Shown here: positions 12,877 through 64,000 of the stretch, piece after piece | Layout: each line of letters starts with the position of its first letter | Numbering within the stretch: the first letter of the stretch is position 1 | Origin: Mobula hypostoma | Taxonomy: Eukaryota | Reading direction: 5' to 3' | DNA length: 64,000 nucleotides | Assembly: GCF_963921235.1 (NCBI RefSeq) | Contig: NC_086108.1 | Span: 38,442,001 to 38,506,000, forward strand | The notes under the pieces: generated by a model | Database searches by the model: none | The model's input: only the letters and a program-made list of their open reading frames with translations | What the model was told of the DNA's origin: nothing | Made by a program: the position numbers and the translations under genes

Positions 12877-13694
12877 CTACATTGTCTTACTTAGATGTTA
12901 TGCCATAACTTATAGACAATGGACCATTTTCTATAATTTATAAATTACAGACTACAATTAAGAGAATTCGCGAACATCAGACATGATCAATGATAGAGTT
13001 TAAATGCTGTTTATCAACCGCCCTGGTTCAACTTACTGGCATGAATCAACAAGTCCCCTATTTATTTTTATTTGGAGATACAGCATGGAATAGGCCCTTC
13101 GAGCTGCACCACCAAATCTAATCTCTGGATAATTTACAATGACCAATTAGCCCACCTGGTGCGTCTTTGGACTGTGAGAGGACCCGAAGAAAACCCACGC
13201 ATTCCACAGGGAGAACATACAGATCCCTTACAGATGATGCCGGCATTAAACTCCAAAGCCCTGAGCTGTAATAGCATTGCGCTAACTGCTACATTGTCTT
13301 ACTCACAAATTATGCCATAATTTATAGACAACGGACAATTTCCTATAATTTATAAACTACAGACTACAATTAAGGGAATTCGTGAGCACCAGACATGATC
13401 GATGATGGAGTTTAAATGCTGTCTATCAACTGCAGTGGTTCAAAATTACTGGCATGAATCAACAAGGCCCCTATTTAGTTTTATTTGGAGATACAGCATG
13501 GAATAGGCCCTTCGAGCTGCACCACCAAATCTAATCTCTGGATAATTTACAATGACCAATTAACCCACCTGGTGCATCTTTGGACTGTGAGAGGACCTGA
13601 AGAAAACCCACGCATTCCACTGGGAGGACATACAGATGACGCCGGGATTAAACTCCAAAGCCCCGTGCTGTAATAGCGTCGCGTTAACCGCTAC
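12877..13694. repeat. Tandem duplication, period ~412 bp, each unit containing a SINE
   Basis: ctacattgtcttac...tatgccataa..tatagacaa starts at 12877 and again at 13289. The near-identical pseudo-ORFs MEIQHGIGPSSCTTKSN at 13072 and 13485 reflect the duplication. Confidence 0.9.
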
Positions 13695-17571: not shown

Positions 17572-19110
17572 CAGTAATATAAAAAGTAATCCACCCCCTT
17601 GGAAGTTTTCATGTTTTATTGTTTTACAACATTGAATCACAGCGGATATAATTTGGCTTTTTTTGAGACTGATCAACAGAAAAAGACTCTGTCAGCATGA
17701 AAACAGGTCTCTACAAAGTGATCTAAGTTAATTACAAATATAAAACACAAAATAATTAATTGCATAAATATTCACCCTCTTTAATATGATACACCAAATC
17801 ATCAGCCAACTGGTTTTTAGAAGTCACATAATTAGTTAAATGAAGATCTGTTTTTGGAGACCTGTGTGCAGTCAAGGTGTTTCAATTGACTGTAGTAAAA
17901 ATACACCTGTATCTGGAAGGTCCAACTGCTGGTGCGTCAGTATCCTGGCAAAAACTACACTATGAAGACAAAAGAACACTCCAAGCAACTCCACAAAAAG
18001 ATTTTTAAGAAGCACAAGTGAGGAGATGGATACAAGAAGATGTCCAAGTCACTGAGTATACCTTGATTTACAGTTAAGTCAATTATCAAGAAATGGAAAG
18101 AATATGGAACAGCTGTAAACCTGCCTACATCAGCCTGTCCTCAAAAACTGAGTGACTGTGCAAGAAGGGGACTAGCTAGGGAGGCCACCAGGAGATTTTA
18201 TAAGCTTTGGTGGCTGAGATGGGAGAGCCTGAACATACAATAACTGTTGCATGGGTGCTTCACCAGTCACAGCTTTATGGGACAGTGGCAAGGAGAAAGC
18301 CACTGTTGAAATAAACTCATATGAAATCTTGAGTAGAGTTTGCTAGAAGGCATGTGGGAGACTCTGAAGTCCGCTGGAAGAAGATTCAATGATCTGATGA
18401 AACCAAAATTGAGCTTTTTGGCCATCAGACTAAACCAAGCACCACGCATCATCAAAAAATACAACTTCATCATCCCTACCATGAAGCATGGTGGGGCTAC
18501 ATTATATTGTGGGGATGCTTCACTGAAATAGGTCCTGGAAGGCTTGTGAAGGTAGAGAGTAAAATGAATGCAGCAAAATACAGGGAAATCCTGGAGGATA
18601 ACCTGATGCAGTCTGCAAGAAAACTGACTTTGGAGAAGATTTGTTTTCCAACAAGGCAATGATCCCAAGCATAAAACTAAAGCTGCACAGAAGTGGCTTA
18701 AAAACAACAAAGTTAATGTCCAGAAATAGCCAAGTCAGAGTCCAGACCGCAATGTAATTGAGAATTTGTGACTGGACTTGAAAAGGAGCTGTTCATTCAT
18801 GATCCCTATGCAATCTGACGGAGCTTGAGCAGTTTTGTAAAGAAGAATTGGGAAAAGTTGCAATGTCCAGGTGTGCAACGCTGACATCGAGACCTATCCA
18901 CACAGACCCAAGGTTGTAATTGCTGCTAAAGGTGTATCTACTAAATTGTGACTTAAAGGGGGTGAATACTTATAAAACACAAAATAATTGATTGCATATT
19001 TGTAATTAATTTAGATCACTTTGTAGAGATTTGTTTTCACTTTGACACGAATGATTCATTTCTGTTGATCAGTCTCAAAAAGGTCAAATTAAATCCACTG
19101 TGATTCAATG
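17572..19110 (+). mobile_element. Tc1/mariner (IR/DR-type, Passport-like) DNA transposon, decayed; right TIR truncated
   Basis: TA|CAGT start and ~200-bp inverted repeats (17572-17780 vs 18955-19110). Transposase remnant from ATG 17962: MKTKEHSKQL...SIIKKWKEYGT, SDETKIELFG, PTMKHGG, FQQGNDPKH, SQSPD...IENL, ending about 18950; stops and frameshifts. Confidence 0.9.
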
Positions 19111-21314: not shown

Positions 21315-21452
<138 letters not shown>

Positions 21453-32121: not shown

Positions 32122-33219
32122 ATTAGATAATTTTGACATTTTCAAAGTAAGTTTATAAAATTGTTAAAAATTTTAAAACTTGAAATCTATTGAATCATAC
32201 TTAATTAGTAGTTTTGCACAATGAATTTGTCTAATATGTTCTACTTGGTTAATGAAAATTAATTTGTATTAAATTAATAATGAATGTTTAACAATTGTTC
32301 AGATAATCTTTGCTTAAATTTTAATATAATACTCTAATTTGAAACTTCTTGGATCTCTGTTGTTGCCACTCTACAAGAAGTACTCTAAAATCTGGAAACC
32401 CCTGATTTACTGCATTAATAAAGTAAGTAAGATGAAGATTAGAATTTATAGCTAGCTGGTAATGTTCGAGAGTGGGAACCCTGCTGTTAGATCCCCAAAA
32501 CTCCTTCACAGAAGGAGAACGCATTAGAAGAAGGTTAAGCAAGGACAGAAGTTGTATGATTAAAAACAGGGGAAAGACTGAGTAACTTATTTGCTCAGAG
32601 ACTGAAATGGATTTAAATAGAAAATAAGCAAATGGCCACATACTGTAAACAATTTGTGAAGCATAGGGTATGCCTGAACTTTCCTACGGTAAACTAATTC
32701 ATCATGCCTGGGTGATGTCTTTGCCTAATACATGGCACTAAATAAGTAATACAAGAAACATAATCACATGTACTTTGTCAAGTGACCCCAAATATGTAAT
32801 GTATTCTAGCACATTAAAATCTCCATTCCCGGGTCCTTGCAGCCATATAGCTGTTATTGCTAACACTCATTCCACAAATTCTGATTGATCTTGATTACAG
32901 TATCTGGAGGCCAGTGTCCAATTAACTCTAACTTTCATTGCTGGGAGCAATAACTTCGAATATCAAGCCTCTGCACAAATAGTGTTCCAAAACCAAGCAT
33001 TTAAGTAGTCATAAAAAACGAAATAGTGGGAATAATTTGTGGTCAGCTAATGCTTGACAATAAGTCAGGAGTATGTGCTTCCTTAACCTTGTGAGAATAT
33101 GCATTAATCACTTTTATATTTGTTTTCCAAACTTTTTACCAGCTACTATATGTAACACAAGATATTCTTAAAGGAGCTGAGCTGCCTGTAATATTCTGTA
33201 TATACATACATATCAAAGC

Positions 33220-41383: not shown

Positions 41384-41795
41384 TGTCACAAGGACGTTGC
41401 GGTGGAACAAACTCAAGTGCCGAACATGGGTGCGAGGCAGAGTCGGGAGGTGTTACGGTCGTAGCGAGCATGGAATTGGTGTCCAAGAGAATCTTTACCA
41501 GGAGTCTTGGTTTTAGTAGCAAATTCAGGAATGATGCTAGACTTAGAACTGATAGTCCTAAGAAGCATAGAACGAGGTTACTCATACACACGTCGACCAA
41601 TGAACTGGCAGCTCCTTGTTGCAATCACAGGGCCTTTATCCTGCAGTTTCTGATGGGAAGCATCACTAGTTCCACTAACAACACACACGGTGTAGTTAGT
41701 GGAACCTGGGAATGATTGGAAATTAAATGAGGTGATTGAGGCCCAATTCCTGCAGTAAATAGCAAGGTGGGGCATTGCCAGAAGGGACCATGACA
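41384..41795 (-). repeat. 3' LTR of sushi-type element
   Basis: Direct repeat of 46040-46430, preceded on the sense strand by a polypurine tract. Confidence 0.9.
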
Positions 41796-42128
41796 GTATC
41801 CCCCCCGCCCCCAGCGGGAGCTTCCAGGCAATCCTCCAGGCCTGTCTGGATGGTCCCGATGAAAGTCCTGGATGAGGGAAGGGTCTAGGATGAAGGAGCG
41901 GGGGACCCAGGAACGCTCTTCTGGACTGTATCCTTCCCAGTCCACCAGGTATTGGAAACCCCTGCCCCGACGGCGCACATCTAGTAGTCGTCGGACGGAG
42001 TATGCCAGATGGTTGTCGATGATACGGGCAGGTGGGGGAGTCTCAGCTGGGGGACACAAGGGGCTGACGGAAACTAGCTTTAACTGAGACATGAAAAGTT
42101 GGGTGGATACGCATGGATCTAGGCAGCT

Positions 42129-43385
42129 TTAGGCAGACTGCTGCCTAAACCTCAAATGGTCCCAGGAAGCAAGGGGCGAGTTTTCTATGTTCGTTCTTGA
42201 GCGGAATGTCCTTGGAGGAAAGCCACACCATCTGCTTAGGTTGCTACTCCTCAGTAGGGCCATGCGTGTCTCCTCCCAAATCTTAAGGCAACGATCAATA
42301 TGGTCCTGAACCGACGGTACCGCAATCTCCTCTTCTTGCACGGGGAACAGTGGGGGTTGGTACCTAAGGGAGCACTCGAACGGAGACCTTCCAATGGCAG
42401 AGCTCACCAGAGAGTTGTGGACATACTCAATCCATGAGAGGTGGTCGCTCCAGGTCAATGGGTTGTTTGCTGTTACACAACGGAGCGTCGCCTCCAGGTC
42501 TTCGTTGACCTGCTCCGTCTGCCCGTTCGTCTGGGGGTGGAAGCCGGATGACAGGCTGACCGATGCGCCTAAGGCTTGACAGAAAGCCTTCCATACTTGC
42601 AAGACGAACTGGGGACCTCGATCGGAGACGATGTCCGCGAGGATTCCGTGGAGGTGGAAGATGTGGCGGACGAGAAGATCTGTGGTTTCCTGAGAGGAAG
42701 GAGGTTTAGGGAGGGCCACAAAGTGCACCACCTTGGAGAATTGGTCCACCATGGTGAGGACAGTGGTGTTTCTGCGGGAAGGGGGTAGACCAGTGACAAA
42801 GTCTAGGGCGATGTGTGAGCAGGGACGACCAGGGACAGGTAGAGGACAAAGCAGACCTGCAGGTGGTCGATGAGAGACCTTTCCCCGGGCACAGGTGGAA
42901 CAAGCTGAGACACAAGGATGGGTGTCCCCCTCCATGGACGGCCACCAAAAGTGCTTCCTCAGGAGAGCCAGGGTCTGATCACTCTCGGGGTGGCAGGCGA
43001 ACCGGGATGTGTGCCCCCATTGGAGAACCTGGGACCTGACGGAGACGGGCACGTACAGACGATCGCAGGGTCCATTGCCCGGGTCAGGGTCGTCCCGCTG
43101 GGCTTCCTTTACTTTAGACTCCATTTCCCAAGTGAGGGTGGCAACCACGCAGGATAGTGGGAGGATAGTCTCGGGACTGGAGGTGTCATCCTTGGAGTCA
43201 TGCTGGCGGGATAGCGCATCCAACTTCCTGTTCTTGGATCCCAGATGGTACGTGAGGGTAAGCTTGAACCATCCAAAAAACAATACCCAACGGGCCTGGC
43301 GGGAGTTCAATCGTTTGGCAGTCTGAATATACCCCAGGTTCTTATGATCAGTCCACACCACAAATGGGTGTCCTGCCCCCTCCAA
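42129..43385 (-). pseudogene. Gypsy pol fragment: RNase H end plus integrase
   Basis: WTDHKNL, HHCC (H..HP..CSTC), [23 protein letters not shown]; frameshifted before the chromodomain. Confidence 0.9.
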
Positions 43386-46039
43386 CCAGTGCCTCTATTC
43401 TTCCAGAGCTAATTTGACCGCCAATAGTTCCGGATTCCCCACGTCGTAATTCCGCTCGGCGGGGGACAGTCAGCGAGAGTAGAAGGTGCAGGGGTGAAGC
43501 TTTTTGTCCCAACTTGACCGTTGGGATAGGACCGCTACTACTCCAGAGTCAGAGGCGTCCACCTCAACAATGAATTGACAGGATGGGTCCGGAGGGCCAG
43601 AATGGGAGCGGTGGTGAAACGCCTCTTCAGGTTGATGAGTGCTGAGTCCGCTTCGGAGTCCCAACAAAATGGTCTGGTAGACGAGGTAAGCTGGGTAAGG
43701 GGGCTGCCACTCGACTGTAGTCTCTGATGAATCTACGATGGAAGTTTGCAAACTCCAGGAATCGTTGAAGTTGTTTGCATGTCGTGGGTCTAGGCCATTC
43801 TTCCACTGCCTGGTTCTTCTCGGGGTCTGCTTTTACCTATCCGCTTTCAATGATATAGCCTAGGAAGCTGACCGAAGGAATGTGGAACTCACATTTCTCC
43901 GCCTTTGCAAATAATTGGTTTTCCCACAGTCTCTGGAGGACTTGACAGATATGGTGTACGTGTTCTTGGGGGCTGCTAGATATCATCAAGGTAAACAAAT
44001 ACGAACCAATTGATAAAGTCCCTCAGTACGTCATTGATCAGGGTTTGGAAAACGGCGGGGGCAAATATTCAAAGTGGCCCAGAGGTGTATTGAAGGCCAT
44101 CTTCCATTCGTCCCCCTCCCTCATCCTAACTAAATGGTAGGCGTTGCAAAGGTCCAGCTTTGAGAAGATGGTAGCTCCATGCAGTGGTTCAAATGCCGGA
44201 CTAATGAGGGGAAGAGGGTAATGGTTCTTACCTGTTATATTATTTAGGCCTCGGTAGTCCACATAGGGGGTGAAGCGTTCCATCCTTCTTTTCTACAAAA
44301 AAGAAACTGGCGCCTACCGGGGAGGATGAAGGCCTGATAATGCCCGCCGTGAGGGACTCGCTAATGTATTTCTCCATTGCCTCTCTCTCCGATCGGGATA
44401 GGTTAAAAAGGTGACTGGTGGGTAGCGGGGCCCCGGGGAGAAGGTCGATGGCACAATAATATGGGAGGTGCAGAGGCTGGGAAAGGACCCGTTGTTTACT
44501 GAACACCTGTCCCAAGTCATGGTGCTCTGTGGGGACGCGGGACAAGTTGAGGGGTTCCAAAACAGGCGGGGTCACGATGGCTTCTCTGGGAGATGGGGCT
44601 GACCGCAGACAGTTGGCATGGCAAGACGGACTCCATTCGGCTATCCTCCCTGTAGACCAGTCGATATGGGGATTGTGTTGGGTCAGCCATAGATACCCTA
44701 GAACTACCGGGGTTTGAGGTGAATGAATGAGACTGAATCATACCTCCTCCTGATGGTTGCCAGATAGGATCAAGGGGCGGCGTACAGTGGGTCACCCGAG
44801 CCAACAGTCTTCCGTCCAGGGCCCGGGCCTCCAGGGGGGTGGTTAGCGGCTCGCGAGGTATTCCAGCCTGGATGGCTATCTCTTCGTCTAGCAGATTGCC
44901 CTCAGCACCGGAATCCGCCAAAGTGGATGGGGACAGGGACTGTTGTTGGTAATTCATGGTTGCCGGGATCTACATCCAAGTCTGGGGTGGTGAAGGGACT
45001 ATCATTCGGCTCACCACAGCTCCCTTTCTCACTGGTGAGCCCTCCATTTTGGCCGCTGAGGGCAGGTATCCTGGCTGGCCACAACAGTAGCAATCCCTAG
45101 CTCTCCAGCTCCGAATTCGTTCAGCCGGGGGGAGACGGTTCCATCCCAGCTGCATCGGTTCCTCCCACAGGGGGGTGGGGACGGTTGGAGCAGGAGCCAC
45201 ACTGGGAGCGGCTAGGGAAGGGGGACTGGCTGAGACTGGTAAGGTGGACTGAGGGCTTCCTCGAGGAGCGGAGCGACTGGTTCTCTCTCTCTGACGCTCC
45301 TGAAGTCGATAATCTAATCGAATGGCTCGCGAGATCAGAGAGTCCAGACAGTCCATGTCGTCCCTCGCGGCCAACTCATCCTTTGTCTTGTCTGAGAGGC
45401 CCTGTCGAAACACCTCCCGTAGGGCCTCGTCATTCCACCCGGAGTCTGCGGCTAAGGTCCGGAACTCAATTGAATACCAGAGTAAGCAACCATTTCACAG
45501 CGTCCTTACCACAAATGGATTGTTCGAAGACTTTCCTCATTTCAGCGGCAAAGGAGAAGTAGGAGGAACAAACCTCTGGTCGGTTATCCCATATCGCAGT
45601 TGCCCGAGCCAAGGCATCCCCTCCTAGCAGCCCCATGATGTACGCAATCTTTGACTTATCTGAAGTGTAGGTACATGGCTGCAGCTCAAAGACTCGGGAG
45701 CATTGTAACAGGAAGGCCCAGTACCTACCTAGGTCCCCGGCGTAGGGTTCAGGCTCGGGTACATACAGCTCTCAAGGGGGTGGTGTTGCTGATTCCAGGG
45801 GCGAGGCTATCCCGAGCGATGCGGTTTGGATAGCTGGGGTTCCAGGAGGGGATGGAGAAAAGGAAGCGGAGACCCAGTCCACTTGTTCACTGACCTTCTG
45901 CACATTCGTGGATAGTGTCCAAAGTTTTTCTGTGATCTCCCAAAGTAGTGAGTTGTTGGCCCCCAACAGGTAGCCCTGGCTGGCCAGGGCCTGTTGTACG
46001 GGATCCGTGTCTGCTGGGTTCATCGTGGCCAGTTCGTTC

Positions 46040-46430
46040 TGTTACAAGGACGTGGCAGTGGAACGAAACCAAGTGCTGAACAGGGGCACGGAGACCGAGT
46101 CTGGAGGCATTACAGTCATAGCAAGCGTGGAATTGGTGTCCAAGAGAGTCTTTACCAGGAGTCTTGGTTTTAGTAGCGAATTCAGGAACAATGCTAGACT
46201 TAGAACTGATAGTCCTAAGAGCCATGGAACGAAGTTACTCATACGCGAGTCGACCAACAAACTGGCAGCTCCTTGTTGCGATCACAGGGTCTTTATTCTA
46301 CAGTTTCTGATGGGAAGCAGGTGTGTGTAGTTAGTGGAACCTGGGAATGATTGGAAATTAAATGAGGTGATTGAGGCCCAATTCCTGTGGTAAATAGCAA
46401 GGTGGTTGATTGCCAGAAGGGACCATGACA
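46040..46430 (-). repeat. 5' LTR of sushi-type element
   Basis: Direct repeat of 41384-41795; gag ATG 17 nt downstream at 46023. Confidence 0.9.
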
Positions 46431-51292: not shown

Positions 51293-52111
51293 GTAAACAC
51301 GAGGAATTCTGCAGATGCTGGAAATTCAAGCAACACACATCAAATTTGCTGGTGAACGCAGCAGGCCAGGCAGAATCTCTAGGAAGAGGTACAGTCGACG
51401 TTTCGCTCCGAGACCCTTTGTCAGGACTAACTGAAGGAAGAGCTAGTAAAAGATTTGAAAGTGGGAGGAGGAGGGGGAGGGGGAGATCCAAAATGATAGG
51501 AGAAGACAGGAGGGGGAGGGATAGAGCCAAGAGCTGGACAGGTGATTGGCAAAAGGGATATGAGAGGATCATGGGACAGGAGGCCCAGAGAGAAGGAAAA
51601 GGGGGAGGGGGGAAAAACCCAGAGGATGGGCAAGGGGTATAGTCAGAGGGACAGAGGGAGAAAAAGAAGAGAGAACAAAAGAATGTGTGTATATAAATAA
51701 ATAACGGATGGGGTATGAGGGGGAGGTGGGGCATTAGCGGAAGTTAGAGAAGTCAATGTTCATGCCATCAGGTTGGAGGCTACCCAGACAGAAGGTGTTG
51801 TTCCTCCAACCTGAGTTGGTTTACAATAGAGGAGGCCGTGGATAGACATATCAGAAATTCTCCCTGAGTCTCCTGTCCCATGATCCTCTCATATCCCTTT
51901 TGCCAAACACCTGTCCAGCTCTTGGCTCCATCCCTCCCCCTCCTGTCTTCTCCTATCATTTTGGATCTCCCCCTCCCCCTCCCACTTTCAATCTCTTACT
52001 AGCTCTTCCTTCAATTAGTCCTGACGAAGGGTCTCCGCCCGAAACGTCGACTGTACCTCTTCCTAGAGATGCTACCTGGCCTGCTGCGTTCACCAGCAAA
52101 TTTGATGTGTG
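51293..52111. mobile_element. Penelope-like element with ~255-bp inverted pLTR arms
   Basis: 51334-51590 is the near-perfect reverse complement of 51860-52111. The spacer encodes (minus) LEEQHL..LGSLQPDGMNIDFSNFR* (GIY-YIG C-terminus). Flanks catcttgtaagtat / caccttgtaggtat are TSD-like. Confidence 0.85.
52017..52052 (+). ncRNA. Minimal type I hammerhead ribozyme motif in Penelope pLTR
   Basis: AGUC-CUGACGA-A-GGG(UCUCCG)CCC-GAAA-C-GUC-GACU: stem I AGUC/GACU, intact core, stem II GGG/CCC, loopless palindromic stem III (ACGU); predicted cut after 52048. Confidence 0.75.
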
Positions 52112-52844: not shown

Positions 52845-53837
52845 ATAACATCTCTGCCAGCATCCTGGATCAAAGTCAAGGCTAAGTACCCTGAGATAGC
52901 CACGAAAGCACTGAAAACGTTGCTTCCATTTCCAACCTATCTCTGTGAAGCAGGGTTTTCTGCAATGAATGCAATGAAAACTAAATTGCGGAATAAACTG
53001 GACATAAGGAACTCCCTTCGAGTATCAGTTTCTCCCATCACCCCTCGATGGGACTGTCCTGTTGCAGGGAAACAAGCCCAGGGCTCCCACTGATTCAGTG
53101 ATCTTGGTGTGTTGCAATGATTTTATATGTTCATATGGGGAAAATATGTGCTGTGTGTTTAATATCCAAATGTTGCTTAAAATGTTATGATGCTATTGAC
53201 TTATAAGTGACTTATAATTGACTTATCACTATATTCATGCAAGGAAAATATGCGCTGTGTGCTTAAAATTAAATTTGTTAGATAAACCCTTTTAGAAATG
53301 AAATTGAGTGTATTAGCCACTTATAAGTGACTTATAGTTGACTTATAGTTGATTCCCCACTAAGGTAGAGAATTCCTATGAAACCATTCATGCTGAAATG
53401 GCGTAAAGTGAAGAAGCAATTACCATTAATTTATATGGAAAAAATTTTGAGCGTTCCCAGGCCCAAAAAAAAACCTACCAAATCATACCAAATAACACAA
53501 AACCTAAAATAACACTAACATATAGTAAAAGCAGGAATGATATGATAAATACACAGCCTATATAAAGTAGAAATAATGTATGTACAGTGTAGTTTCACTG
53601 AACAGAAGCTTCAAAAACGATTGGTAGAAAAAAATCGGCACGTACACGCATAGGCACACAGGTGCCCGTGCAAGGCTTCATGGTCATTGTAGTCTTTCTC
53701 GGGGTAAACACAACGTATTTGACTGCTACTTCTGTCCGTTGGCAACCCTCCCCCTCCCCCCCACCGGGTCGGCCCGTCCACAAGAATATTTTCAATAATA
53801 AACCAGTCTGCAGTGCAAAAAAGGTTGGGGACCCCTG
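52845..53837 (+). mobile_element. hAT Charlie-type transposon 3' end (contains a Tigger fragment at ~53355-53595)
   Basis: 52845-53093 translates ITSLPASWIKVKAKYPEIATKALKTLLPFPTYLCEAGFSAM...KQAQGSH* (hAT dimerization domain); TIR GGTTGGGGACCCCTG ends at 53837. Confidence 0.85.
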
Positions 53838-57558: not shown

Positions 57559-59151
57559 CAGGTGTCCCCCGCTTTTCGAATGTTCGCTTTACAAAACCTT
57601 ACTGTTACGAAAGACCTACATTAGTACCCTATTTTCGCTTTCAGAAGGTGTTTTCACTGTTACAAAAAAAAATTCAGCGCGTGATAAAAAATCAGCGCAC
57701 GAAAAAATCAGCGCGCGATAAAAGGCAGCGTGCCCCGAGCAGCTGCTCTCCCCTGGATTCTTGCCGGCATTGCTTAAACACGTGCCTGTGAGCAGCCGTT
57801 TGCAAGATGAGTTCTATGGTATCGGAAAAGCCTGAAAGAGCTCGTAAGGGTGTTACACTTACGGTAAAACTAGACATAATTAAGCGTTTTGATTGTGGTG
57901 AACGAAGTAAGGACAGCGTGAGTTTGGCTTGTGGAAGTTGACGAAGATGATGTTGAAGAGGTTTTGGCATCCCATCACCAAGAACTGACAGATGAAGAGC
58001 TGATGCAATTGGAAGAAAAAAGGATAACAATCGAAACCGAATGAGTAATGATAAAGTACGACTTTAATTTTGAAAGGGTACGTCGGTTTAGGGGATATTT
58101 GCAAGATGGTTTAAGCCCTTATTAAAGAACTGTGTGATAGAAAAATACGCGAGGTTCAGGAGTCAACCAAGCCTTCCACATCAGCCACAGCAGACGACGA
58201 ACCTCGACCTTCGACATCTAGGCGGGCAGAGATAGAAGATGACCTGCCTGCCCTAATGGAAACAGACGATGATGAGATGACACCCCAGTGTCCCACCACC
58301 CCAACCCCCAGGCCACGGACAGAAACCGATTTGCGAAGAATGCAATGGTAGCTGGGAGGCACACAGCACATCTTTAAGAAAAAAGCCAAAATAAACATGC
58401 TAATTAATTAGGTGCCGCCGACACGGAATGTTCGGCCCAGCTCAGAGACGATGCAATCGGAAATCGGCACTGATCTGGGCTGACAATTACGGGCGGCACC
58501 TAATTAATTAGCATGTTTGTTTCGGCTTTTTTCTTAAAGATGTGCTGTGTACCTCCCGGATACCGCTGGACCCCTGCGTTCTTCGTGGCAATGTATCGCT
58601 CGGCGGTCTGGAGGGTGGGGGCCACTGCACCACCCAACCTCCAACGACTCAGTCTAACACACCATCATCAGTGTGCTCGGCGCTGTCCCGATTCCCGTAA
58701 GTGATACTACACTGTACATACATTATTTCTACTTTATATCGGCTGTGTATTTTTACGTGTTATTTGGTATGATTTGGCAGCTTCATAGCTTACAGGTTAC
58801 TGGAGAACGCTTGCGCGTATTTTTGCCAACAGCGCTTGCGTGAGATTTTCTGCCGACGGCGCTTGCGTGAGATTTTCGCTCCGGAGAACAGTTCAGTAAT
58901 GATTGTGGAAAAGTATTTCTACGTTATATAGGCTGTGTATTTATCATATCATTCCGGCTTTTACTATATGTTACTGTTATTTTAGGATTTATGTGTTATT
59001 TGGCATGATTTGGTAAGTTATTTTTGGGTCTGCGAACGCTCACAAAATTTTCCCATATAAATAAATGGTAATTGCTTCTTCGCTTTACGACATTTCGGCT
59101 TACGTACCGTTTCATAGGAACGCTCTATCTTCGGATGGAGGGGGAAACCTG
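57559..59151 (+). mobile_element. Tigger/pogo non-autonomous element, complete ends, internally deleted transposase
   Basis: TA|CAGGTGTCCCCC ... GGGGGAAACCTG|TA. ATG 57807 gives MSSMVSEKPERARKGVTLTVKLDIIKRFDCGE (CENP-B-type HTH start), followed closely by C-terminal EDDVEEVLASHHQELTDEELMQLEE. Confidence 0.85.
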
Positions 59152-59784
59152 TATTTTATATAACCTTGAGGTTCATCTCTATACAGACAGTTACAAAACA
59201 AAGAGACCCAATAGAATCCATTAAAACAAAAGACAGTCAAACACCCAATGTGCAGAGAAAAAGCATGCAAACAATAACAGTAAGCAAATAGCATTGAGAA
59301 CTAAAGTTCACAGAAGTGAGTCCACAATGTGATACTTGCAGGCCATGACCACAGTTTGGCGCAGAGATAAGTAAACCTCACCTAGCAGCAATTTGAACTG
59401 GCCCTGACATCCTGTTCTTTTCAATTTGGCCCGGTGCTTAAATCATCCAGACCTTGCTCTCGAACCTGGATTCTACCACTGTGGGATGCTCTTGGGCTGT
59501 TGCTCTGCCACCTCAGTTCAGCCCATACCCAACTTTTCCACTTCAGTTTGGTGTTTAAATCAATCAAACCTCAGGTTGTTCCCTGCTCTCTGGCACGGAC
59601 ACCGCCGCCTCGCTTGTGTACGTACACGCCACTGAGCAACCATCCTGAACCTTTGAGACCTCAGTTCTGACCACAAAAATGCCAGGTCATACGGGTGGTT
59701 CAAAAGTTCAACTCCAATGGGGAAGTTACGGTCTATTGTTTGCAGGGATCACTCAGCAGAAAAAGTGTAATTAATGAAGTATTT

Positions 59785-59904
59785 CAATCACAAACAAGAG
59801 AAAATCTGCAGATGCCGGAAATCCAAGTAACACACACAAAATGTTGACTGTACTCCTTTCCATAGATGCTGCCTGGCTTGCTGAGTTCCTCCAGCATTTT
59901 GTGT
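59785..59904. mobile_element. Short inverted Penelope-terminus insertion
   Basis: Same architecture as 54825-54944; TSD-like ttaatgaagtattt / ttaatgaagttttt. Confidence 0.7.
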
Positions 59905-60212
59905 TTAATGAAGTTTTTGTTGTTTTCTTTGTTCTATTTGCCACCAGAAAGCAGTCACTGAGGTTCACCAGCGCTATCTTAAATCAAAAGTTTAAGAGCT
60001 GTTTTAAGGCAAGGCTGGGAAAGCACCCCCAATATATTCACAAGACTCACAAGGAAAAGGCACACAGAGATATACAAACTCTTTGATCTCTTGTCTCAAC
60101 ACAGCTTGTTTTTTTTTCAAACACATTCTGTGTCCATTGATCAATTAGCTACTCTAATGGTCACTCCCCATTATCTTGCAGCACACAACATTCCTTTGGA
60201 CTTACATAAGTA

Positions 60213-60791
60213 CAGTTGAAGGCAGATGTTTCCATACACCTTAGCCAAATACACTTAAACTCAGTTTTTCACAATTCCTGACATTTAATCCTAGAAAACA
60301 TTCCCTGTTTTAGGTCAGTTAGGATCACTACTTTATTTTAAGAATGTGAAATGTCAGAATAATAGTCAAGAGAATGACTTATTTCCGCTTGTATTTCTTA
60401 CATCACTTTCCCAGTGGGTCAGAAGTTTACATACACTTTGTTAGTATTCAGTAGCATTGCCTTTAAATTGTTTAACTTGGGTTAAACATTTTGGATAGCC
60501 TTCCACATGCTTCTCACAATAAGTTGTTGGAATTTTCTTCCATTTCTCCAGACAGAACTGGTGTAACTGAGTCAGGTTTGTAGGCCTCCTTGCTCGCACA
60601 TGCTTTTTCAGTTCTGCCCACAAATTTTCTATCGGATTGAGGTCAGGGCTTTGGGATGGCCACTCCAATACCATGACTTCGTTGTCCTTAAGCAATTTTG
60701 CCACAACTTTGGGTCATTGTCCATTTGGGAGACCCATTCGCTACCGAGCTTTAACTTCCCAGCTGATGTCTTGATATGTTGCTTCAATATA
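60213..60791 (-). mobile_element. Sleeping Beauty-like Tc1 transposon, right IR/DR and transposase C-terminus
   Basis: TA|CAGTTGAAGGCAGATGTTTCCATACACCTTAGCCAAATAC...inner DR TCCCAGTGGGTCAGAAGTTTACATACACT (60409-60437). Protein WPSQSPDLNPIENLWAELKK.VRARRPTNLTQLHQ...LTQVKQFKGNATEY*. Confidence 0.92.
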
Positions 60792-61827
60792 CAGGTTTCC
60801 CCCGCCATCCAAAGGTAGAGCGTTCCTATGAAATGGTTCGTAAGCCGGAAGGTCATAAAGCAAAGAAGCAATTACCATTTATTTATATGGGAAAAATTAG
60901 TGAGCATTCACAGACCCAAAAATAACCTAGCAAATCATGCCAAAAAACACATACAACCTAAAATAACAGTAACATATAGTAAAAGCAGGAATGATATGAT
61001 AAATACACAGCCTATATAAAGTAGAAATACTTCTCTACAATCATTGCCTGCACTGTTCTCCGTAGCGAAAATCTCACGCAAGTGCTCTCGGCAAAAACAC
61101 TCTCTCCAGTAACCTTTAAGCTATGAAGCTGCCAAATCATACCAAATAATGCATAAAAATACACAGCCTATATAAAGTAGAAATCATGTATGTACAGTGT
61201 AGTATCACTTACGGGAATCAGGAAGACAGCGAGCACACTGATGGTGGTGTGTTAGGCTGAGTCGTCAGAGGTTGGGGTGGTGCAGTGGTCCCAACCTGCG
61301 GGCAGCGAACTGATATCGATCAGCGGAGGATTCAGCGGTCCAGCAGTGGCCAGGATGCACCCAGCACATCTTTAAGAAAAAAGCTGAAATAAACCAGCTA
61401 ATTAATTAGGTGCCGCCCAGCACGTAAATGCCGGCCCAGATCGGAGTCGACACAATCAGCAATCACCTCTGATCTGGGCTGACATTTACGTGCCGGGCGG
61501 CACCTAATTAATTAGCTTGTTTATTTTGGCTTTTTTCTTAAAGATGTGCTGGATGTGTCCCGGCTACTGCTGCATTCTTCACAGATCAGTATCTATCTGT
61601 GGCCGGGGGATTGGGGTGGTGGGACACGGGGGTGTCATCTCATTGATCAGGGCAGGCAGGTCATCTTCTCCTATGACTGCCTGCCTCAATGTCAAAGGTT
61701 GAGGTTCGTCGTCTGCTGTGGCGGATGTGGAAGGCTTGCTTGACTGTTTAGCCTTACGCATTTTTAGATTACACAGTTCTTTGTAAGGACTCAAACCATC
61801 CTGCAAATATACCCTAAACCGACATAC
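60792..61827 (-). mobile_element. Second Tigger/pogo copy (opposite orientation), inserted at a TA in the SB-like transposase and interrupted by Gypsy
   Basis: TA|CAGGTTTCCCCCG start; colinear with the reverse complement of 58080-59151. Confidence 0.85.
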
Positions 61828-64000
61828 TGTAGCGGTGTGCTACACACAGCGCTAGAATAATCACACGGAGTCGGTGAGTTGGAGTTGCGATAAAGAGAGA
61901 TTTATTCAAACTTCGCGGCCTGCTTTAAAGCCTTCCTGTTCCCACCCTCCCTGGGCGGGACTGCTGTGGGGAATGCATATTCCCAGACCCTTTCTGCATG
62001 CAGGATTTTCCCTCTGCTGGTGAAGATGGCCAGGCGCCCTCTTTGGGGCCGGCCCTCTGCCTGCGCACGCTGTTGTGAGCCAGTTCGTGTGTGCTAGAAA
62101 GTGGGTCGCCACATAACGCCCCCCCCCCACAGAACCGGCGATACCTCCCCCAATGTCCACAGTCTGGATCGGCCTCTGTTTGGGAGGTCTGCCCCTGCGC
62201 CGCGGTGCCTGAGCCTGGACCGGCTGTGCCAAGTCCACATGGGCCAGTTTGAGTCGGTCCACCGTGAAAACCTCCTCTCTCCCGCCAATGTCCAGCACGA
62301 ACGTGGACCCGTTGTTCCTGATCACCTTAAACGGCCCCTCGTAGGGCCCCGTTGTACAAAAAGAAACTTACAGTTCTGCAGGTCTTTGGGTACGCAGGTT
62401 GGGCTCTGTCCATGGTGTGAAGTGGGTATGGGGGCCAGGTTACCGAGCCTCTCACGTAGTCTGTCCAGGACTGCTGCGGGTTCTTCCTCTTGCCCCCTTG
62501 GGGCTGGTATGAACTCTCCTGGGATGACCAGGGGCGCGCCGTACACCAACTCGGCCGACGAGGTGTGCAGATCCTCTTTGGGCACCGTGCGGATTCCGAG
62601 CAGGACCCAGGGAAGCTCGTCCACCCAGTTAGGCCCCTCCAGGCGGGCCATGAGAGCCGATTTCAGGTGACGGTGGAAGCACTCCACTACTCCGTTCGAC
62701 TGTGGGTGGTAGGCAGTTGTGTGGTGTAGCTGTGTTCCTAAAAGGCTGGCCACAGCCGATCACAGGCTGGAGGTGAACTGGGCTCCCCTGTCGGAGGTAA
62801 TGTGGGCCGGTACCCTGAAGCGGGCTACCCAGGTTGCGATCAGTGCTCGGGCGCAGGATTCGGAGGTGGTGTCGGTGAGCGGGACTGCCTCTGGCCATCT
62901 GGTGAAGCGGTCTATCATAGTTAGGAGGTACCGCGCTCCTCGCGGCACTGGCAGGGGCCCCACGATATCCACATGAATGTGGTCGAACCTCCGGCGGGTG
63001 GGTTCGAACTGCTGTGGCGGAGCCTTGGTGTGCCGCTGCACCTTGGCCGTTTGGCACTGCATACACGTTTTGGCCCATTCACTGACCTGTTTACGCAGTC
63101 CATGCCACACGAACCTGTTGGAGACCAGCCGGACGGTTGTCCTGATGGAGGGGTGCGCTAAGTTGTGAATGGACTCGAAAACCCGCCGGTGCCAGGCTGC
63201 TGGGACGACGGGGCGGGGTTGGCCGGTAGCGACGTCACATAGGAGGGTCCCCTCACCTGGGCCTATGGGGAGGTCTTGGAGCTGTAAACCGGAGACTGCA
63301 GTCCTGTAACTGGGGATCTCAGCGTCTGCCTGCTGTGCCTCTGCCAGCGCTGCATAGTCCACCCACTGGGACAGGGCCTGTATGGTACGTCTGGAAAGTG
63401 CGTCCGCCACGACTTTGTCCTTTCCCGAGACATGCCGGATGTTCGTCGTGTACTTGGAGATGTAGGACAGATGTCGCTGCTGGCGGGACGACCAGGGGTT
63501 GGACACCTTAGTGAACGCAAATGTAAGCGGTTTGTGGTCTGTGAACGTGGTGAAGGGCCTACCTTCTTAGAAGTACCTGAAATGCCGGATTGCCAGGTAT
63601 AGTGCTAATAGCTCCCGGTCGAAAGCACTGTATTTGAGTTCAGGTGGTTGTAGATATTTGCTGAAGAACGCCAGGGGTTGCCAGCGACCCTCGATGAGCT
63701 GCTCCAGCACTCCACCGACCGCTGTGTTGGATGCGTCCACCGTGAGGGCAGTAGGAACGTCCGTTCTGGGGTGCATTAGCATCACGGCGTTTGCCAGGGC
63801 TTCTTTGGTTTTAACGAAAACGGCTGCAGCCTCTTCGTCCCAGGTAATGTCCTTGCCCTTACCTGACATTAGAGTGAACAGGGGGCGCCTGGTTCGGGCT
63901 GCTGAGGGGAGGAAACGGTGGTAGAAATTCACCATACCCACGAATTCCTGCAGGTCTTTGATTGTGTTGGGTCGGGGGAAGTTGCGGACCGCGTCTACCT
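61828..64000 (-). mobile_element. Gypsy LTR retrotransposon (3' LTR 61828-62113; RNase H and integrase), continues beyond the window
   Basis: LTR TGTGGCG...CGCTACA with G10 PPT at about 62119-62128. LTVDAS..YSAFDRELLA (RNase H); H.LAHP..C..C, HIHVDIVGPLP, ITSDRGAQF, YHPQSNG..E (integrase). CpG-rich with only a few lesions. Confidence 0.92.

Follow-up and report, generated by a model that had tools for sequence, protein, structure and literature searches.

The Sleeping Beauty (SB) clade of DD34E/Tc1 transposons is characterized by a coding sequence identity above 80% within the clade, against 61% between SB and SB-like elements, and horizontal transfer has been ascribed to it in 71 of 108 species (Jia et al. 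2022, PMC9777934); the cut-and-paste mechanism with TA duplication has been described (PMC3878927). Among vertebrates at large, Zhang et al. 2020 (PMC7070016) reported 975 transfer events, ~94% of them with ray-finned fish and Tc1/mariner the commonest group, and in the accessible part of their genome list Callorhinchus and Rhincodon are present and Leucoraja, Chiloscyllium and Scyliorhinus were not found. Transfer of DNA transposons involving Chondrichthyes has already been reported, in the form of Tigger transfers involving two sharks (PMC9219625), and PCR did not detect the DTSsa1 group of Tc1 elements, known from lampreys and teleosts, in cartilaginous fish (Kuraku et al. 2012, PMC3516227). 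The TcMar share reaches 3.28% in skates and 2.30% in rays, compared with 0.33% in Pristis, 0.14% in sharks and 0.03% in chimaera (PMC12361510; preprint 10.1101/2024.05.27.594570), a contrast that spans all Tc1/mariner families and not SB specifically; this expansion is described without invoking transfer, with 0 occurrences of the word "horizontal" in the accessible text of the journal version. The accessible text of PMC12400950 and PMC13343379 contains nothing on SB in rays, and the literature searched, mostly from outside subscription journals, yielded no account of a ray carrying an SB-clade element. Against this background, the 64-kb stretch of DNA analyzed here (the window) holds one end of an SB-clade element next to what appears to be elasmobranch DNA.

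Anatomy of the element and of the insertions nested in it

The main reference for comparison was L001, a complete element found by scanning metagenome contigs with a 14-protein SB alignment, a scan that returned 80 loci. The L001 protein is 99% identical to the transposase of the pT2 vector (P0163), and the element is termed salmonid-type solely from a protein cluster (118 proteins) in which near-identical proteins group with Oncorhynchus, Salmo and Hucho entries. Among the 80 metagenome loci, L001, L003 and L027 are the only ones of SB type and none has ray-type sequence; the plasmid collection gave no match, and 467 pattern matches in viral contigs yielded 0 confirmed cases. The features of the locus are as follows:

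60211..60212 (no strand): TA target dinucleotide at the outer end, read from the sequence; the L001 alignment stops on the same TA
60213-60791 (minus strand): right end of an SB-clade Tc1 element, starting directly after the TA
60213..60437 (minus strand): right inverted repeat (IR) of the IR/DR type, ~225 bp, 211/227 identical to the right IRs of L001 and L003
60223-60242: outer direct-repeat (DR) core, decayed, with 4 substitutions relative to L001 in 60222-60232
60420-60439: inner direct-repeat core
60441..60710 (minus strand): transposase C terminus, SB residues 252-340 plus the stop codon, containing the third catalytic residue, E279
60710..60712 (minus strand): deletion of 13 bp that shifts the frame, placed between D244 and E279, the second and third catalytic residues; seen as a gap relative to L001
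60711..60791 (minus strand): SB codons 221-248 of the transposase, with D244, the second catalytic residue; ends on a TA, the insertion point of the next element
60792..61827 (plus strand): second DNA transposon with short TIRs and a TA target, inserted in the SB coding region
57559-59151: complete 1.6-kb copy of the second transposon, inverted
61828..64000 (minus strand): Gypsy-type LTR retrotransposon splitting the second element and running past the window end (integrase domain rve, E = 5.1e-13; RNase H, E = 2.9e-26)

The original prediction, made from the sequence alone, had recognized at 60213..60791 a ~225-bp IR/DR that is colinear with that of SB even though non-coding, together with the last 87 residues of the transposase carrying about 14 differences from SB, and each of these observations proved accurate. 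The IR resembles the right-hand IR of L001 most (~93% identity), with 67-68% identity to the left IRs of L001 and L003, and its two DR cores are spaced by 197 bp, exactly as in L001. The frame at 60444-60713 matches SB100X (PDB 5CR4; E = 8.6e-45), the sole PDB match, as well as the Pfam domain DDE_3 (E = 2.1e-08), and the C terminus is 84% identical to protein P0004 over 89 aa. Upstream of the 13-bp deletion, the coding sequence continues in another frame, where tblastn (60790-60707) recovered 78.6% identity over 28 aa. Of the catalytic residues, D244 and E279 are unchanged and D153 lies beyond the left break. The long TIRs (mostly 180-300 bp) with internal direct repeats that typify the SB clade are thus represented by the 225-bp IR, and the coding sequence, identical to L001 at 320/351 positions (91%) and to L003 at 319/351, lies above the 80% within-clade bound. 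Spanning 120 of 340 codons, frameshifted and represented in the window by one IR whose outer DR has decayed, the copy is not autonomous; it is a dead, inert fossil without a function of its own.

The TA is seen at the outer end of the SB copy, and the opposite end lies outside the 64-kb window. The nesting of the insertions gives the order of events, namely, SB, then the second transposon, then the Gypsy element, and for the rest of the SB copy (its left half) the predicted location is beyond the latter, past position 64000. The two copies of the second transposon are 81% identical over 1090 columns; the alignment between them ends at 61827, after which the Gypsy LTR presumably starts. Judging from a CENP-B_N match in the 57559-59151 copy (E = 0.0032, below the Pfam cut-off, which makes the family label weak), the second transposon is probably a non-autonomous element of the Tigger/pogo type. 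A further, shorter piece of it was observed at 53362-53575, as was an internal 220-bp inverted repeat.

Host of the copy and the insertion junction

The host was assessed from one gene fragment:

21316..21410 (minus strand): KCNT2 coding exon, the host marker, from a splice-site scan; ~38.8 kb from the SB element

This exon, which matches a KCNT1 structure (E = 2.8e-08), emerged with a looser splice-site scan, having been missed by a short-motif scan and a strict splice-site scan, and a comparison of twelve long ORFs with Pfam revealed no host gene. Among the best 120 of 1235 homologues, the exon is identical at 32/32 residues in 19, all of them from named sharks or rays, and no named teleost is found, whereas the identity in chimaera, coelacanth and gar is 97%. 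The original prediction had made its reading depend on the host not being a teleost, and the exon points instead to an elasmobranch, an assignment that turns on one residue relative to chimaera, gar and coelacanth. The host of the SB copy is probably a devil ray. As a separate observation, at 21316-21432 (minus strand) a splice acceptor with an open frame is located 22 bases before the annotated start codon of the KCNT2 exon, so that KCNT2 may have a further exon upstream, in which case the SB copy might sit in a 5' intron.

Contig evidence for positions 59160-60791 was drawn from four runs (X1, X5, X7 and X19) of the 23 listed, and the 15 runs with a small share besides X7 and X19 were given no weight. 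A 382-nt contig of X1 (organism A) extends over the junction between the flank and the IR with 0 differences, and a 393-nt contig of X5 (organism B, from another study) also spans it, showing 9 differences and 1 gap; the X5 flank contig shows 9 differences in 444 positions. The junction being bridged in both runs, the insertion is common to two organisms ~2% apart. X7 and X19 cover the transposon only (11/30 bins) and none of the flank or of the second element, the depth of which is very high in X1 and X5 and zero in X7 and X19.

These data bear on whether teleost or vector DNA contaminated the assembly or a chimeric join created the locus, a danger that the original prediction had also raised. 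SB vectors are common in laboratories, and X1 may be the assembly's own sample, hence not independent of it. However, X5 carries another label, comes from another study and bridges the same junction at ~2% divergence, and the transposon that splits the SB copy, although plentiful in X1 and X5, has zero depth in X7 and X19. Furthermore, the host copies carry alleles of their own: at 9 sites, at least 99% of the X1 and X5 depth has the window letter, whereas X7 and X19 have the L001 letter (93-100%). A second copy in a Mobula hypostoma RefSeq model, P0097, is also at odds with contamination. With two organisms from two studies bridging the junction, this explanation is already largely refuted, and we consider its residual probability negligible.

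Several other repeats were observed in the window. Downstream of the KCNT2 exon, on its intron side, the interval 17582-19110 (plus strand) contains an almost complete but decayed Tc1 element that belongs to a different family, with IRs of ~155 bp (17630-17784 and 18953-19110), 74% identity to L014 over 1511 columns and only ~37% protein identity to SB; should it have a close relative in fish, it would be another candidate for transfer. A Gypsy-type element at 41384-46430 is bounded by paired repeats (41384-41795 and 46040-46430; 84% identical), likely LTRs, and encodes RNase H and integrase domains in a frame of 421 aa. A tandem duplication with a unit of ~412 bp (89% identical) occupies 12877-13694, and at 51334-52111 a short repeat of very high abundance (261 bp) occurs twice in opposite orientation, the two being 92% identical and separated by 263 bp, with related pieces at 33213, 52566, 54824 and 59790, the last of which (59790-59904) has the top depth of 59160-60791 in both X1 and X5.

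Similarity to the salmonid-type element and the host subfamily

Over 594 columns, the window copy and L001 share 531 identities with one 13-base gap, that is, 531/581 or 91.4%. The non-coding part (211/230) is as conserved as the coding part (320/351), and its 230 bases align without a gap, compared with a best gapped identity of 139 in 200 shuffles. At the protein level, 20 changes are found in 115 codons (95/115 identical), 14 of which, in agreement with the count in the original prediction, fall within residues 254-340. The corresponding divergence estimates are dS 0.14 (SE 0.05), with 9 synonymous differences only, dN 0.084 and K2P 0.092.

To separate what belongs to the host family from what is private to this copy, 40 of 156 difference rows were examined, 33 of which are in the element, all among the 50 differences between the window copy and L001. 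At least 23 of the 50 are private to the window copy, most of the X1 and X5 depth having the L001 letter there, and the 13 bases deleted from the window copy are still present in another host contig (X1 record 8). The 9 sites at which X1 and X5 keep the window letter, together with one site where the host family has a third letter, bring the subfamily-level differences to at least 10 of 50, with 17 sites assigned to neither class. The host subfamily accordingly differs from salmonid-type SB at 10-27 of 581 positions (1.7-4.6%; 95.4-98.3% identical), and the decay of the window copy since its insertion amounts to 23-40 sites (4.0-6.9%).

The subfamily is abundant. Summed X1 depth over the element is 2.7e4-1.8e5, compared with 360-680 in the adjacent bins, which marks a high-copy family and is not a copy number; likewise, one allele at an IR site recurs in as many as 99 contigs of X1 and 72 of X5, contigs not being counted copies. 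With the 118 proteins of the salmonid-type cluster on the teleost side, at least five copies are present per clade, the number used in PMC7070016 as a transfer criterion that guards against contamination.

A second SB-like copy, of ~67 residues, forms the end of the M. hypostoma RefSeq model P0097 (XP_062905703.1, TTC33 isoform X3). Its tail is the nearest tree row to the window copy (87% identity over 61 columns), and both have F303, L305, P312 and E317. In a tree of 89 columns, an alignment that does not resolve relations within the SB clade, the window copy and P0097 pair (support 87/82) inside a clade of 13 rows (96/99) that contains every SB row and one long-branch row (L002). Among 189 SB-like C termini, F303, P312 and E317 occur jointly in the two ray copies and in a Sparus/Prochilodus group and are not the salmonid pattern, whereas at K287, T298 and K331 the ray copies match the salmonid pattern. 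On this residue evidence, the ray family is best read as the sister of salmonid SB. We considered the window element as a copy of salmonid SB itself and rejected this reading, given a distinct sister subfamily with at least 10 fixed differences. As a side observation, the P0097 tail might be an exonised SB-like copy or an annotation artefact.

Probable transfer between cartilaginous and bony fishes and its direction

In the tree of PMC7070016, the chondrichthyan split is placed at 473 My. Vertical inheritance from the gnathostome ancestor, with the sequence kept by slow elasmobranch evolution or by selection, would need, over both branches, a rate of 9.7e-11 changes per site per year for the K2P of 0.092 and of 2-5e-11 for the subfamily distance. 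For comparison, salmonid duplicates 25-100 My old are ~86% similar (PMC2198921), from which a rate of at least 7.7e-10 per year and, over 473 My, a divergence of at least 0.37 on the bony-fish branch alone follow by hand arithmetic. Sharks have the lowest mutation rate measured in vertebrates, 7e-10 per generation (PMC10587355), which favors vertical descent to the extent that the slow elasmobranch clock weakens the rate argument on the ray branch, but not on the teleost branch. Selection might be read from a dN (0.084) below dS (0.14), although the latter is based on just 9 synonymous differences; however, the 230 non-coding bases align without an indel, and DNA transposons within genomes evolve neutrally (PMC7070016). 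Moreover, the copy visibly decays, with its frameshift and at least 23 private changes, which leaves at most 4.6% for 946 My of branches, and the SB proteins of other teleosts, at 81-84% identity to SB, are no nearer to it than the decayed ray fragment (95/115). We therefore regard vertical inheritance as very improbable. The remaining refuting condition of the original prediction, an identity no higher than that of neutral orthologous DNA, is rejected by this rate arithmetic only.

The similarity to salmonid-type SB is far above that expected from inheritance through the common ancestor, so the element most probably crossed between cartilaginous and bony fishes, and we hold with high confidence that horizontal transfer is the best explanation. 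The Ks of 0.14 over 115 codons falls within the transfer filter of PMC7070016, which is set at Ks <0.5 on at least 100 codons; a further criterion of that paper places Ks + 2 SD below the 0.5% quantile of core-gene Ks for the two clades, and Ks + 2 SE is 0.24 here. The original prediction of horizontal transfer is upheld, with the refinement that what the ray genome carries appears to be a sister subfamily rather than a copy of salmonid SB. Because the element represents a sister subfamily, it does not by itself give the donor or the direction. Among the best 120 of 188 matches to the P0097 tail, none exceeds 86% as a candidate donor and none comes from another named chondrichthyan, both being weak evidence from a word-limited protein search.

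In the scenario that we favor, an active SB-clade DD34E Tc1 element would have entered the germ line of an elasmobranch lineage. It multiplied by cut-and-paste into TA sites, giving rise to the high-copy, host-specific subfamily that is apparent from the allele pattern and depth. One copy inserted at this locus before two related organisms split, as seen from the shared junction, and then decayed neutrally, as recorded in 4-7% substitutions, the 13-bp frameshift and the damaged outer transposase-binding repeat. A second TA-targeting transposon and, judging from the nesting, a later Gypsy element subsequently inserted into the SB copy. The likeliest donor would be a teleost carrying a relative of the salmonid element that has yet to be sampled, with a ray as recipient and possibly a parasite or prey as the route; within the transfer explanation, this direction is modestly favored. 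Teleost to ray is the default because the diversity of the SB clade lies in ray-finned fish, which account for 107 of its 108 species (PMC9777934).

The same diversity argues against the reverse arrangement, in which batoids are the older reservoir and the donor, directly or via a vector, of salmonid-type SB. This alternative draws on the decay of the window copy, which, at 4.0-6.9% in a slow-clock host, is several-fold above the ~1% per lineage accumulated since the split of organisms A and B, given a flank ~2% apart between them. The distance of the host subfamily from salmonid-type SB is nevertheless a mere 1.7-4.6%, and L001 and L003, both of the salmonid type, differ at 12 of 1642 positions, a figure that understates salmonid decay, as both were picked as the best SB matches. 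Likewise, both ray copies keep F303, P312 and E317, as in the more distant Sparus/Prochilodus group, residues that are absent from the salmonid type; yet the ray subfamily has a derived residue of its own, L305, and is therefore a sister, not an ancestor. On balance, a batoid donor is unlikely. In its fullest form, batoids would be a long-lived, slow-clock SB reservoir with a ray subfamily older than the salmonid burst, would have kept a near-ancestral SB that accounts for much of the unexplained Tc1/mariner expansion of rays and skates and would have handed it on to teleosts, among them the ancestor of those salmonid copies from which SB was reconstructed; we hold this, too, to be improbable.

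Rays and salmonids could also each have been supplied independently by a third host, for example, a parasite or an invertebrate. Parasite records can be host contamination, which counts against such a route, and no third-party carrier of ray-type alleles is present among the 80 metagenome loci or the best 120 of 188 matches to the P0097 tail. Conversely, fish Tc1 families have been reported in parasite sequence data and in lampreys (PMC2198921; PMC3516227), one mollusc is listed with an SB-clade element (PMC9777934) and Tc1/mariner hit groups are often indirect (PMC7070016), so that we rate a third host as doubtful but deserving of consideration.

The locus widens the natural host range of the SB clade from ray-finned fish to elasmobranchs and, on the transfer reading, documents a germ-line transfer across a 473-My split. 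Such a transfer offers a testable cause for some of the growth in Tc1/mariner content reported for rays and skates. In addition, with its many copies, a slow-clock genome can serve to date and root the history of SB and to show natural transposase variants.

Comparison with known systems

Tc1 transfer among aquatic vertebrates is well known; what is new here is the elasmobranch host record for the SB clade. The closest described system is Sleeping Beauty itself (SB10, SB11 and SB100X; 5CR4; P0163) and the salmonid-type Tss elements (PMC2198921), with which the window copy shares 91% DNA identity over 581 bases and the same IR length, DR spacing, TA target and stop position. It differs from them in its elasmobranch host, in belonging to a subfamily with at least 10 fixed differences, including F303, L305 and P312, and in being truncated and frameshifted, with a damaged outer DR. 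The 91% identity places it in the SB clade of Jia et al. 2022. Unlike the present locus, that clade, in the accessible part of PMC9777934, comprises 107 ray-finned fish and one mollusc and no Chondrichthyes, the sole chondrichthyan record being a ZB-like element in Callorhinchus; among 12 species codes sought in the supplement, only Callorhinchus was found, in a table whose long rows are incomplete and could hide a record. The shark Tigger transfers (PMC9219625) concern another superfamily. The lamprey-teleost DTSsa1 group (PMC3516227) offers a further parallel, with near-identical Tc1 elements across an even deeper vertebrate split and neutral decay after arrival, but involves a different Tc1 family, 95-99% identity and an obvious parasite link.
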